This document shows, piece after piece, positions 3,307-7,513 of a DNA stretch of 21,396 bases. The position numbers and the translations under genes are program-made. The stretch comes from a virus (Duplodnaviria; Heunggongvirae; Uroviricota; Caudoviricetes), in IMG/VR virus record IMGVR_UViG_2531839486_000009; one strand, 5' to 3'. The notes under the pieces were generated by a model, which searched no databases, had not been told where the DNA came from, and saw nothing but the letters and a program-made list of their open reading frames with translations. Position 1 is the stretch's first letter, and the number at the start of each line of letters is the position of its first letter.

Positions 3307-3382
3307 GGCCCTTTAGCTCAGTGGTGAGAGCGAGCGACTCATAATCGCCAGGTCGCTGGTTCAAATCCAGCAAGGGCCACCA
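3307..3382 (+). tRNA. tRNA with CAT anticodon (tRNA-Ile2-like or tRNA-Met)
   Basis: Cloverleaf read by eye: acceptor GGCCCTT/AAGGGCC, D-arm GCTC..GAGC, anticodon loop CTCATAA, T-arm GGTCGCTGGTTCAAATCCAGC, CCA encoded. Resembles E. coli ileX-type tRNA from memory. Confidence 0.85.
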
Positions 3383-3483: not shown

Positions 3484-3560
3484 GCGTTGTTAGCTCAGCC
3501 GGACAGAGCAATTGCCTTCTAAGCAATCGGTCACTGGTTCGAATCCAGTACAGCGCGCCA
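3484..3560 (+). tRNA. tRNA-Arg (anticodon TCT)
   Basis: Acceptor GCGTTGT/ACAGCGC (one G-U pair), D-arm AGCTCAGCCGGACAGAGC, anticodon stem-loop ATTGC-CTTCTAA-GCAAT, T-loop GGTTCGAATCC, CCA encoded. Confidence 0.85.
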
Positions 3561-4471: not shown

Positions 4472-4807
4472 TTATGGACTTTGTTGTTTTAGTCCATAAG
4501 GACATATTTGCAGAGTGCAACGGTTATTAAAGCATTCATTCAATACGTTATCTGTATTTGTAGGGCATTCCTGGCTGTTTTTGATTAAATTCCAGAATGT
4601 TTTATTGAATGGTACTACGTTGTAAATGGTTACAGGTAGCACTTTGTTATTGAGCATGATGCCTGTGTGAGTCAGTGTAAATATACTTTCAGGAGGTAAG
4701 AAAGCATCCGATTGATACCAGATTATTAATTTTATTTTACTCCATATGACTGAAAAAGATATTCCGCATGATGGCTGGATAACTGTATCAATCACAATCC
4801 ACTTCAT
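4472..4807 (-). CDS. hypothetical protein (111 aa), orphan antisense moron gene with Cys-rich C-terminus
   Basis: Minus-strand ORF with a near-ideal RBS (AAGGA, 6-nt spacing, from + strand ctttcctt at 4811-4818) and a plausible AT-rich promoter containing TATACT upstream. C-terminal C-x10-C-x4-C-x4-C cluster. Confidence 0.6.
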
Positions 4808-5255: not shown

Positions 5256-5413
5256 TACTACGTCATCGTACTGGCCCGGCATTCCAGGCCATAAAAGACA
5301 GTCTGGCAGTGGGACTAAATGCACTGACGCTGACGGATATTACCAAAAATGCAACGTATGGCGTTGAGATAGAAAGTCTGGTGCTGGAGATAAATGCACC
5401 GGCATCATCATAA
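5252..5413 (+). CDS. possible small ORF (53 codons, GTG start overlapping previous stop)
   Basis: Open frame [53 protein letters not shown]. No ATG and poor SD spacing; could be the remnant 3' end of a deleted larger gene. Confidence 0.2.
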
Positions 5414-5498
5414 AAAGTGAGCCAGTCAAATGGAAGGTATCGTTAAACTCACCGGTAGTGTCAGTGGGTCGTCTGAGACGCTTGCATGAGTTATCAGA

Positions 5499-5530
5499 GC
5501 CATCAGTAGTTAACTGGTGGCTTTTTTATT
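5499..5530 (+). terminator. intrinsic terminator upstream of lysis cassette
   Basis: 8-bp stem gccatcag / ctggtggc (one G-U pair), 7-nt loop, then ttttttatt; ends about 30 nt before the holin start. Confidence 0.5.
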
Positions 5531-5562
5531 GTTGTCAGCTTCCGGATAACGGGAGACGGGGT

Positions 5563-5778
5563 ATGGACCAGATGGAAAAAATCACAACAGGTGTGTCATA
5601 CACCACGTCAGCGGTGGGAACGGGCTACTGGTTCCTGCAGTTGCTGGACAGGGTTTCCCCGTCTCAGTGGGCGGCAATAGGCGTGCTGGGGAGTCTGCTG
5701 TTTGGGCTGCTGACATATCTGACTAACCTGTATTTCAAAATCAGAGAGGACCGTCGTAAGGCTGCACGGGGAGAGTAA
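5563..5778 (+). CDS. class II pinholin, phage 21 S-like (71 aa, dual start)
   Basis: GGGAGACGGGG RBS before ATG 5563. Translation [71 protein letters not shown] closely matches my recollection of S21; two TM segments; Met1/Met4 dual-start arrangement. Confidence 0.9.
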
Positions 5779-5782
5779 TTCA

Positions 5783-6133
5783 ATGACTCAAAACTATGAA
5801 CTGATTGTGAAAGGGATCCGCAATTTTGAGAATAAAGTTACGGTAACTTTAGCGTTACGGGACAAAAAACGCTTTGACGGTGAAATTTTTGACCTGGACA
5901 TCTCGCTGGACCGTGTTGAAGGTGCCGCGCTGGAGTTTTATGAGGCAGCAGCCAGAATGAGCATCAGACAGGTCTTCCTGGATGTTGCTGCCGGGTTATG
6001 TGAAGGGGATGAGCAGTCGCCGGAAAAGCGCCCCGTAATTTTAGAGGCGCAGAATGTATGGATAACCTACAAAGGAAAGCTACCGGGAAGAATTACTGGT
6101 TCTCTGAAGACTCCTCCGGAATCACAACCTTAA
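5783..6133 (+). CDS. hypothetical protein (116 aa) between holin and endolysin
   Basis: ATG 5783 preceded by GGGGAGAG (7-nt spacing), 4 nt after the holin stop. Predicted soluble, no TM or signal peptide seen; no motif recognised. Confidence 0.6.
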   Translation: MTQNYELIVKGIRNFENKVTVTLALRDKKRFDGEIFDLDISLDRVEGAALEFYEAAARMSIRQVFLDVAAGLCEGDEQSPEKRPVILEAQNVWITYKGKLPGRITGSLKTPPESQP

Positions 6134-6196
6134 GTCACTGACCGGAACAGATAAACCTGTCCGTGGGCAGAAACCGATAAATCCTGATAAATATCC

Positions 6197-6730
6197 ATGA
6201 ACGCAAAAATCAGATACGGCCTGTCGGCTGCCGTTTTGGCACTGATTGCCGTCGGTGCGCCCGCGCCTGATATTCTCGACCAGTTTCTGGATGAAAAAGA
6301 AGGTAACCACACAACGGCATACCGCGATGGGTCCGGCATCTGGACCATCTGTCGGGGTGCCACGATGGTGGATGGAAAACCCGTTTTTCCCGGTATGAAA
6401 CTGTCGAAGGAAAAATGCGACCAGGTCAACGCCATTGAGCGTGATAAGGCGCTGGCATGGGTGGAGCGCAATATTAAAGTACCACTGACCGAACCACAAA
6501 AAGCGGGTATAGCGTCATTCTGTCCCTATAACATTGGCCCCGGTAAGTGTTTCCCGTCGACGTTTTATAAGCGGCTGAATGCAGGTGATCGTAAGGGCGC
6601 ATGCGAGGCGATTCGCTGGTGGATAAAAGATGGTGGGCGCGATTGCCGCATACGTTCAAATAACTGCTATGGACAGGTTATTCGTCGTGACCAGGAAAGC
6701 GCATTAGCCTGTTGGGGGATAGAGCAGTGA
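6197..6730 (+). CDS. SAR endolysin (phage 21 R-like lysozyme, T4-lysozyme fold)
   Basis: N-terminal Gly/Ala-rich signal-anchor-release segment ([17 protein letters not shown]) followed by ...[20 protein letters not shown]..., consistent with the Glu-Asp-Thr catalytic arrangement of R21-type lysozymes. Confidence 0.9.
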
Positions 6731-7188
6731 GCAGAGTCGCCGCGATTATTTATGCTTTGGTTATCTGCATCATCGTCTGCCTGTCGTGGGCGGTCAATCA
6801 TTACCGTGATAACGCCATCGCCTACAAAGAACAGCGTGATAAAAAAGTCAGTGAGCTGAAGCAGTCGATCGCCACCATCGCTGACATGCAGCAGCGTCAG
6901 CGTGATGTTGCTGCACTCGATGCAAAGTACTCGAGAGAATTAGCCAATGCGAAAGCTGAAAATGAAACTCTGCGCGCTGATGTTGCCGCTGGTCGTCGTC
7001 GGTTGCACATCAAAGCAGTCTGTCAGTCAGTGCGTGAAGCCACCACCGCCTCCGGCGTGGATAATGCAACCAGCCCCCGACTGGCAGACACCGCTGAACG
7101 GGATTATTTCACCCTCAGAGAGAGGCTGATCACTATGCAAAAACAACTGGAAGGAACCCAGAAGTATATTAATGAGCAGTGCAGATAG
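6727..7188 (+). CDS. Rz: i-spanin Rz
   Basis: Start overlaps the endolysin stop (GTGA; tool ORF opens at TTG 6712). N-terminal TM segment ([20 protein letters not shown]) followed by a charged coiled-coil region; embedded Rz1 in the +1 frame. Confidence 0.8.
6947..7129 (+). CDS. Rz1: o-spanin Rz1 (lipoprotein embedded in Rz)
   Basis: 60 aa, entirely inside Rz in another frame. Lipobox LVVVGC after signal peptide [14 protein letters not shown]; proline-rich mature part ([14 protein letters not shown]). Confidence 0.8.
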
Positions 7189-7219: not shown

Positions 7220-7513
7220 TTATTGTGAGCAATACACACGCGCTTCCAGTGGAGTATAAATGCCTAAAGTAATAAAACCGAGAAATCCATTTACGAATGT
7301 TTGCTGGGTTTCTGTTTTAACAACATTTTCTGCGCCGCCACAAATTTTGGCTGCATCAACAGTTTTCTCCTGTCCAATTCCCGAAACGAAGAAATGATGG
7401 GTGATGGTTTCCTTTGGTGTTACTGCTGTCGGTTTGTTTCCAACAGTAAACGTCTGTTGAGCACATCCTGTAATAAGCATTGCCAGAGCGGCAGAAAACA
7501 ACATTTTTTTCAT
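7220..7513 (-). CDS. bor: Bor lipoprotein (serum-resistance moron, Iss family)
   Basis: Start at the internal MKKM of tool ORF 7220..7561. Translation MKKMLFSAALAMLITGCAQQTFTV...ETITHHFFVSGIGQEKTVDAAKICGGAENVVKTETQQTFVNGFLGFITLGIYTPLEARVYCSQ is near-identical to lambda Bor as I recall it; lipobox LITGC. Confidence 0.9.
   Translation of the reverse strand: MKKMLFSAALAMLITGCAQQTFTVGNKPTAVTPKETITHHFFVSGIGQEKTVDAAKICGGAENVVKTETQQTFVNGFLGFITLGIYTPLEARVYCSQ

Follow-up and report, generated by a model that had tools for sequence, protein, structure and literature searches.

A YdfR-family (DUF1327) gene as optional cargo between the pinholin and endolysin genes of Escherichia coli lambdoid prophages

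The lysis cassette described here lies in the IMG/VR virus record IMGVR_UViG_2531839486_000009 (Duplodnaviria; Heunggongvirae; Uroviricota; Caudoviricetes). The whole DNA stretch of 21,396 nucleotides is called the window in the following. The cassette consists of these features:

5563..5778, + strand: S21-type class II (pin)holin gene (S), 71 codons; match to PF04971 (E 9e-33) and to a PHROG holin family
5768..5775, + strand: Shine-Dalgarno sequence GGGGAGAG, within the last codons of S and ahead of ydfR
5783..6133, + strand: ydfR-family gene (DUF1327), 116 codons plus stop (TAA at 6131-6133)
5783..6004, + strand: conserved N-terminal core domain of the ydfR product, amino acids 1-74, from alignments and an AlphaFold2 model (mean pLDDT 88, pTM 0.71)
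6005..6118, + strand: middle segment of the ydfR product, amino acids 75-112, GDEQSPEKRPVILEAQNVWITYKGKLPGRITGSLKTPP; from alignment, present in most E. coli copies and missing in K-12 YdfR
6134..6196, + strand: 63-nt spacer, which is the leader of the endolysin gene according to DNA alignment; no obvious Shine-Dalgarno sequence
6197..6730, + strand: gene for a SAR-type endolysin (R) of the T4-lysozyme family, 177 amino acids; PF00959 (Phage_lysozyme), E 1.4e-24; phrog_7, endolysin
6727..7188, + strand: Rz i-spanin gene; PF03245 (Phage_lysis), E 2e-49; annotated as 'lysis protein'
6947-7129, + strand: Rz1 o-spanin lipoprotein gene, embedded in Rz, from the list of open reading frames

The ydfR-family reading frame opens with the ATG at 5783, 4 nt past the stop codon of the pinholin gene (TAA at 5776-5778), and the 63-nt spacer at 6134-6196 separates it from the endolysin ATG at 6197. 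It has the same orientation as the lysis genes, and the Shine-Dalgarno sequence that serves it is part of the 3′ end of S. The original prediction, which was made from the letters alone, had described the reading frame in just this way, and its Shine-Dalgarno sequence, start position, length of 116 amino acids and 63-nt gap all match the sequence. The encoded protein is acidic (13.1 kDa, pI 5.2). A search for a transmembrane segment or a signal peptide by hydropathy and sequence found none, as had been predicted: the maximal Kyte-Doolittle value in a 19-residue window is only 1.03, while the holin reaches 1.7 and the endolysin 1.87. The protein is therefore classed here, by prediction, as soluble and cytoplasmic. 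The pinholin has a dual start, Met1/Met4 (MDQMEK, from 5563), and its Pfam family is named Phage_holin_2_1 (P21 holin S). The endolysin value of 1.87 comes from a weakly hydrophobic, SAR-like segment at the N-terminus, and the catalytic triad E-x8-D-x5-T can be read straight from the sequence. Accessory genes of the bor/iss type follow Rz in the window, and in relatives ant is located between R and Rz.

According to the original prediction the gene was unassigned and its product carried no recognisable motif. Homology searches overturned both statements. The protein matches Pfam family PF07041 (DUF1327) with 142.4 bits (E 5.3e-42; gathering cut-off 25 bits) over profile positions 1-92 of 93, and BLASTP aligns its residues 1-74 with K-12 YdfR at 59/74 identical positions (80%, E 2e-45). 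Copies that are 100% identical are found in phage records, where they are labelled 'putative YdfR family protein'. A megablast search with positions 5400-6800 returned the same cassette at 99.9% identity from many E. coli chromosomes, in which PGAP gives the gene order as 'class II holin family protein | YdfR family protein | lysozyme | lysis protein'; K-12 has this arrangement too, in its Qin prophage. From position 479 to its end the window is 99.8% identical to one such E. coli prophage. The gene as such is thus no discovery, being covered by Pfam as DUF1327 and by RefSeq as 'YdfR family protein' and being present in K-12. These comparisons establish it, on sequence grounds, as a functional and already catalogued member of the YdfR/DUF1327 family. 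It is evidently a real gene, far beyond a chance reading frame, since the Pfam match has an E value of 5e-42, hundreds of homologues exist, and the dN/dS values are 0.21-0.29.

The two matching PHROG families, phrog_2091 and phrog_406, have no assigned function. None of the NCBIfam models matches the window protein, a PDB sequence search returned nothing even at E 10, the PADLOC defence models gave no family at E <= 0.1, and a BFVD structure comparison gave no match at E <= 0.001. Altogether, no sequence or structure relative of known function was found for YdfR in PDB, BFVD, PADLOC and NCBIfam. The family is also narrow, since an exhaustive profile search of 1.84 billion representative proteins yielded only 90 matches.

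The core domain was modelled with AlphaFold2 using a diverse alignment. In the model, antiparallel strands at residues 5-14, 18-27 and 34-43 are followed by a long helix at residues 50-72 (beta-beta-beta-alpha). The most conserved motif, EGAxLEFYEA, is located at the junction of strand and helix, and its residues Y53 and E54 do not vary even among remote homologues with 25-30% identity. Structural neighbours are weak, mostly RNase-H-like and dsRBD beta-beta-beta-alpha units, and the modelled core has no convincing structural relative. It also occurs by itself in stand-alone proteins of 72-76 amino acids; phage Evi encodes only a core of 72 amino acids. Residues 75-116 are modelled poorly (pLDDT about 40). 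After codon 112 ('SLKTPP') the homologues part ways into different C-terminal modules, which results in forms of 114/116 amino acids (window type), of 176/183 amino acids with an extra helical domain, and of 263-287 amino acids; family protein lengths in E. coli span 72 to 287 amino acids. Pairwise dN/dS values of 0.21-0.29 for the N-domain show that the protein is under purifying selection; the middle segment has values of 0-0.5. Between the two main alleles the core has a dS of about 1.5 and the middle segment one of 0.18-0.34. This contrast in the alignments indicates mosaic recombination.

The prototype of the family is K-12 YdfR (b1555, P76160), which is encoded at the same site in Qin, in the order essQ-ydfR-rrrQ-rzpQ/rzoQ. 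Its start codon likewise lies 4-5 nt after the holin stop codon, and within the 80% identical residues 1-74 it has the same predicted beta-beta-beta-alpha core. In contrast to the window protein it continues into an unrelated 29-residue tail, and its stop codon overlaps the rrrQ start (ATGA), whereas the window copy has the 38-residue middle segment, a 4-residue tail and the 63-nt gap before R. There are also long forms such as orf5 of Stx2 phage 86 (268 amino acids), the protein of Stx1_499 (263 amino acids), P0128 (287 amino acids) and the 176/183-residue proteins. They share the N-domain, the middle segment and the S-adjacent start with the window copy and differ from it by extra C-terminal domains, often with a convergent small gene after them. 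The window copy stops at the module boundary, and no convergent gene follows it.

The original prediction had regarded the gene as an unusual insertion into a cassette in which R normally follows S directly. Comparison with minimal cassettes bears out the insertion: in VT2-Sakai/933W, S is followed after 4 nt by R, which uses the same GGGGAGAG, and in SfI, which has an R21-type endolysin, S overlaps R. Because these cassettes join S straight to R, ydfR is, as the cassette comparison shows, cargo that the S21-type cassettes of Escherichia/Shigella lambdoid prophages may have or lack at their S|R junction. The insertion is frequent and not odd, however. DNA of ydfR is present in 4349 of 5426 complete E. 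coli genomes (80%), and a single genome may have it at as many as 10 places. The S21-type holin is found in 427 phage records and a YdfR homologue in 101, many of the latter being Stx1a and Stx2c phages. In IMG/VR, at least 571 stretches encode a YdfR relative. We surveyed the best 80 of these at least 571 loci, ranked by similarity to the window protein. Within this set, the ydfR ATG lies exactly 7 nt after the last sense codon of the holin gene at all 79 loci with upstream DNA, and an endolysin gene is located downstream at all 78 loci with downstream DNA. The interval between ydfR and the endolysin gene is 66 nt (window type) at 67 of these 78 loci; at 10 it is 349-917 nt and contains cargo. 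The ydfR-R junctions of E. coli may carry C-terminal modules or convergent small genes as such extra cargo. In the annotated phages that were sampled, ydfR is next to S in all. The base composition of the gene is modestly lower than that of its neighbours, with 47.0% GC (GC3 47%) for ydfR, 53.7% (GC3 64%) for S and 52.6% (GC3 54%) for R.

A simple consensus scan of the + strand around 5783-6196 found no promoter-like or terminator-like site, which is a weak negative result; a terminator-like hairpin is located upstream of S at 5496-5524. Since no promoter or terminator was found, ydfR would be a passenger of the late transcript and not an autonomous moron. The start signals of R depend on whether ydfR is present. 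The sequence GGGGAGAG lies ahead of R in cassettes without ydfR and ahead of ydfR when it is present, and the N-terminus of R reads MNAKI with ydfR upstream and MSRKL in cassettes without it. In ydfR-containing cassettes the 3′ part of the leader, about 50 nt, is conserved regardless of the upstream cargo; it is kept in phages Evi, PhiR12_2_star, 86 and YYZ-2008, in UTI89 and in the window. Judging from this arrangement, insertion of ydfR moves R off the strong ribosome-binding site embedded in S. The altered translation signals of R might by themselves shift the time of lysis, irrespective of any activity of the protein. Deletions of ydfR would therefore confound an effect of the protein with an effect of spacing. 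A structured regulatory RNA in the gap between ydfR and R was also considered and rejected, since the predicted fold of the spacer is like that of shuffled sequences (z -0.35).

Distant matches to the family are stand-alone proteins of 72-94 amino acids, some of them named DUF1327 proteins of Serratia, Sodalis and Citrobacter. Seven such loci (Serratia, Sodalis, Citrobacter and metagenomes) were looked up. At all seven the gene is a co-oriented insert in a lambda-like tail cluster, and a lysis cassette surrounds it at none of them. The Serratia gene lies between the tail assembly chaperone and tape measure genes, the Citrobacter gene 3′ of the tape measure gene and the Sodalis gene ahead of L; further junctions are between M and L, between L and K, and before J. 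A tblastn search of the phage collection with the remote homologues recovered only E. coli YdfR genes. The location in tail clusters speaks against a dedicated lysis role and is the strongest argument, drawn from gene order, that the activity of the DUF1327 domain is not inherently tied to lysis. The invariant position at S|R in E. coli would more likely result from spread by homologous recombination between the conserved flanks.

At six of the seven distant loci a small convergent gene is located directly 3′ of the DUF1327 gene. A convergent gene after ydfR is also present in UTI89, phage Evi, PhiR12_2_star and Stx2 phage 86. The partners in Serratia and Citrobacter are homologous (36% identity, E 2e-14) yet lie at different tail junctions, so the pair has moved as a unit. 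Altogether, the convergent genes beside DUF1327 belong to at least seven unrelated PHROG families. Pfam searches with them gave sub-threshold noise only, including 'DUF1823' at E 0.023, and no PADLOC defence model matched.

Published data on function concern the K-12 protein. A bacterial two-hybrid screen picked up YdfR(1-72) three times, and full-length YdfR gave a two-hybrid signal with Rne 1-597 (PMC13232886, 2026). In the same study Rne 1-598 co-elutes with Strep-YdfR, and DNase-resistant nucleic acid (RNA) co-purifies with the protein. Because YdfR was pulled from lysate without nuclease treatment, the contact between RNase E and YdfR could be bridged by RNA. Overproduction of YdfR changed few transcripts; growth arrest upon overexpression is described for yegJ alone, with ydfR run alongside (PMC13232886). 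Almost no ydfR reads were found in K-12 under standard growth, and cold-stress induction of the Qin cluster is known from expression databases cited there (PMC13232886). Among the primary hits listed for a CPRG screen of envelope leakiness is the ydfR Keio mutant (PMC3879167, supplements), which gets no follow-up in the main text. This hit is likely a polar effect of the resistance cassette on rrrQ, since K-12 ydfR overlaps the start of this endolysin gene. Our literature search found no paper that pairs ydfR with the holin, and one that mentions DUF1327 in passing.

We tentatively favour the reading that YdfR is a late-expressed binder of a host factor, encoded at the S|R junction, with RNase E and RNA as candidate target, and that it is not a lysis-timing factor. 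Going by the anatomy, ydfR would be transcribed solely within the Q-dependent late operon, because it has no promoter or terminator of its own, and its translation would start from the strong Shine-Dalgarno sequence that the last codons of S contain; R would at the same time be displaced onto the conserved leader that has none. The core of 72-74 residues with its EGxxLEFYE motif is probably a host-factor binding module and not a component of lysis. The K-12 orthologue suggests RNA and the N-terminal half of RNase E, which is the catalytic one, as candidate target, because the interacting K-12 residues 1-72 are 80% identical here. Late in infection YdfR might modulate RNA processing or decay, for instance of the long late transcript. 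The site in the lysis cassette would then reflect recombinational history and a well-expressed landing place, not lysis timing. The mechanism, binding of a host factor such as RNase E, is what we infer and is the weakest step of this explanation; the link to RNase E is thin, coming from a single paper on the K-12 orthologue with two-hybrid and co-purification data.

Known regulators of lysis include the S21-71 antiholin, P1 LydB and T4 RI/RIII, and most antiholins are membrane-associated. YdfR is like them in being encoded next to the holin and co-expressed with it; it is unlike them in having no membrane segment, no obligatory linkage to a holin, and homologues in tail modules. YdfR might nevertheless time lysis, by acting in the cytoplasm on the pinholin, for example through its charged C-terminal tail or through the ratio of S71 to S68, or by changing the supply of endolysin. 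We consider this unlikely. It would account for the invariable location of ydfR between S and R, with its start 4 nt past the S stop codon, at every E. coli/Shigella locus examined, for the use of the late transcript and the S-embedded Shine-Dalgarno sequence, and for the distinct leader and MNAKI N-terminus of R, and it could draw on the Keio mutant in the CPRG primary lists (PMC3879167). This hit is absent from the main text, however, and could be polar on rrrQ, and the growth arrest upon overexpression is described for yegJ only (PMC13232886). A timing role is further opposed by the 427 records with this holin type compared with 101 with YdfR, by lysis-proficient Stx2 phages that go without the gene, and by the seven tail-cluster loci far from any holin. 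Of the two roles that the original prediction had offered, lysis-timing accessory and moron at a site of high expression, the evidence favours the accessory, moron-like passenger.

Classical lambdoid morons, such as bor and lom of lambda and the HK97/HK022 morons described by Hendrix and colleagues, are autonomous accessory transcription units in late operons. The window gene resembles them: it is optional between conserved late genes, has a lower GC content and stands beside other accessory genes (bor/iss, and ant in relatives). It is unlike them in that neither a promoter nor a terminator was detected for it. The moron proposal thus stands as far as optional presence, tail-cluster homologues and lower GC content are concerned, and does not stand as regards an autonomous unit. 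Embedded as it is in the translation signals of the late operon, ydfR is probably not expressed in the lysogen. This bears on the alternative that the prophage expresses it, for example under cold or envelope stress, and that it gives the lysogen stress tolerance or excludes other phages, which we also regard as unlikely and place behind a role in timing. Presence/absence polymorphism between conserved genes, a GC content below that of the flanks and the classic morons nearby all fit such a benefit, as does a gene that is intact and under purifying selection in the cryptic Qin prophage and present in 80% of E. coli genomes in up to 10 copies; the cold-stress induction of the Qin cluster would agree with it as well (databases cited in PMC13232886). 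It has to contend with the missing sigma-70-like promoter upstream and terminator downstream, with the near absence of ydfR reads in K-12 under standard growth and the small transcriptomic effect of overproduction (PMC13232886), and with the lack of a PADLOC defence model match.

Another reading takes YdfR as partner or controller of the convergent cargo, which would neutralise a protein expressed in the lysogen or handle antisense or double-stranded RNA; the window copy would then be an orphan. It builds on the reverse-strand genes after DUF1327 at six of seven distant loci and in UTI89, Evi, PhiR12_2_star and Stx2 phage 86, on the homologous Serratia and Citrobacter partners at different junctions, and on the weak dsRBD-like fold neighbours together with the co-purifying RNA. 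Yet DUF1327 is conserved beside convergent genes from no fewer than seven unrelated PHROG families, a partner is missing at 67 of the 78 best IMG/VR loci and in K-12 although these copies are under purifying selection, and a hot spot at which unrelated morons gather accounts for the pattern just as well; we find this reading quite improbable. A combination with the favoured host-factor binding would make DUF1327 a portable late module that binds RNase E and/or RNA and that travels with reverse-strand cargo and serves it, the window copy being without partner but keeping the activity. Where convergent morons interrupt the late transcript, such a module might shield it from RNase E or from decay set off by antisense RNA, or it might neutralise a partner expressed in the lysogen after the switch to lytic growth. 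We rate it as improbable, ahead of the pure partner reading and behind the timing and lysogen-benefit roles. Very improbable, finally, is that the gene is decaying filler, either a chance-open reading frame or a truncated remnant of the 176-287 amino acid forms. The window form does stop at codon 116, where longer homologues enter the extra helical domain, and its C-terminal 45 residues are predicted with low confidence. But the N-domain has a dN/dS of 0.2-0.3 and the middle segment one of 0-0.5, the 116-residue form is abundant, with 1129 member sequences in cluster P0001 and 67 of the 78 best IMG/VR loci, and the core is complete and conserved down to homologues with 25-30% identity.

Several phage proteins are known to modulate RNase E, namely T4 Srd, T7 gp0.7 and phiKZ Dip. 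Srd associates with the N-terminal catalytic half of the enzyme, and Srd and gp0.7 are products of early genes. YdfR has no sequence or fold relationship to Srd, gp0.7 or Dip. Like Srd, the K-12 protein is small, phage-encoded and reported to associate with this half of RNase E; unlike Srd and gp0.7, YdfR is encoded by a late gene. If the link to RNase E is confirmed, it would place a late gene of temperate phages among the few known phage modulators of this enzyme. YdfR is encoded in the operon that controls toxin release and lysis, is found in many Shiga-toxin phages and is under purifying selection.

The endolysin gene R is preceded by a leader of about 50 nt, which was delimited in alignment A6, the DNA alignment of the ydfR-R spacer with other ydfR-containing cassettes.

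window 6147-6196: endolysin leader, directly 5′ of the R ATG

This leader is kept across the ydfR-containing cassettes, whatever cargo intervenes. It reads …AACCGATAAATCCTGATAAATATCC-ATG up to the R start codon and contains GATAAA(T/C) motifs repeatedly. An obvious Shine-Dalgarno sequence was not found in the approximately 50 nt before the ATG, and RNA structure prediction for the leader revealed nothing significant. In the Qin prophage of E. coli K-12 the leader is reduced to about 15 nt adjoining the ATG, because the ydfR reading frame runs through this region.

Very frequently the gene directly 3′ of DUF1327 is small, lies on the opposite strand and is convergent with it. This arrangement was found at six of the seven distant tail-cluster loci and at no fewer than four E. 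coli loci with DUF1327 between S and R; the ydfR copy of the window is without such a partner.

L017:2311-2583 (-): convergent small gene
L019:2044-2340 (-): convergent small gene
L021:2258-2518 (-): convergent small gene
L003:3317-3631 (-): convergent small gene
L007:3744-4019 (-): convergent small gene
L011:3766-4053 (-): convergent small gene
L014:3773-4321 (-): convergent small gene
L106:754-966 (-): convergent small gene
L104:3769-3945 (-): convergent small gene

The partners are spread over seven or more PHROGs, each of unknown function. Those of Serratia and Citrobacter are homologous (36% identity, E 2e-14), and despite this the tail junctions of the two DUF1327 and partner gene pairs differ. 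In a Sodalis prophage (L009) and a metagenomic prophage (L104), two further genes, probably unrelated accessory cargo, are found a few kb 5′ of DUF1327.

L009:1725-1985 and L104:547-804: HicB-like gene (weak Pfam match) and ORF6N-domain gene

Upstream of the window lysis cassette, the following features were identified between the Q antiterminator gene and the holin gene S.

3307-3379 and 3484-3557 (+): tRNA genes, tRNA-Ile and tRNA-Arg by annotation of the matching genome
4257-4446 (+): STnc100 sRNA-family match (Rfam RF02076)
4472-4807 (-): IraM-like ORF of 111 aa, annotated "anti-adapter protein IraM" in a near-identical genome
5496-5524 (+): terminator-like hairpin with T-run

tRNA genes downstream of Q are the usual layout of Stx-like lambdoid prophages. 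The STnc100 match is full-length (123 bits, gathering score 47). It is located after the tRNA genes and before the lysis cassette, and overlaps the stretch immediately upstream of the IraM-like gene. IraM is an RssB/RpoS stabilisation factor, and this reverse-strand accessory gene lies between Q/tRNAs and S, the place occupied by stx in Stx phages. The hairpin is strong (12 pairs, followed by the T-run) and lies about 40 nt 5′ of the holin start, just downstream of a DUF1737 pseudogene; Q-modified polymerase presumably transcribes past it.

The end of the cassette is occupied by an accessory gene, convergent with Rz.

7220-7513 (-): bor/iss-type lipoprotein gene, annotated "increased serum survival lipoprotein Iss"

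Genes of the bor/iss type are classic lysogenic-conversion morons.
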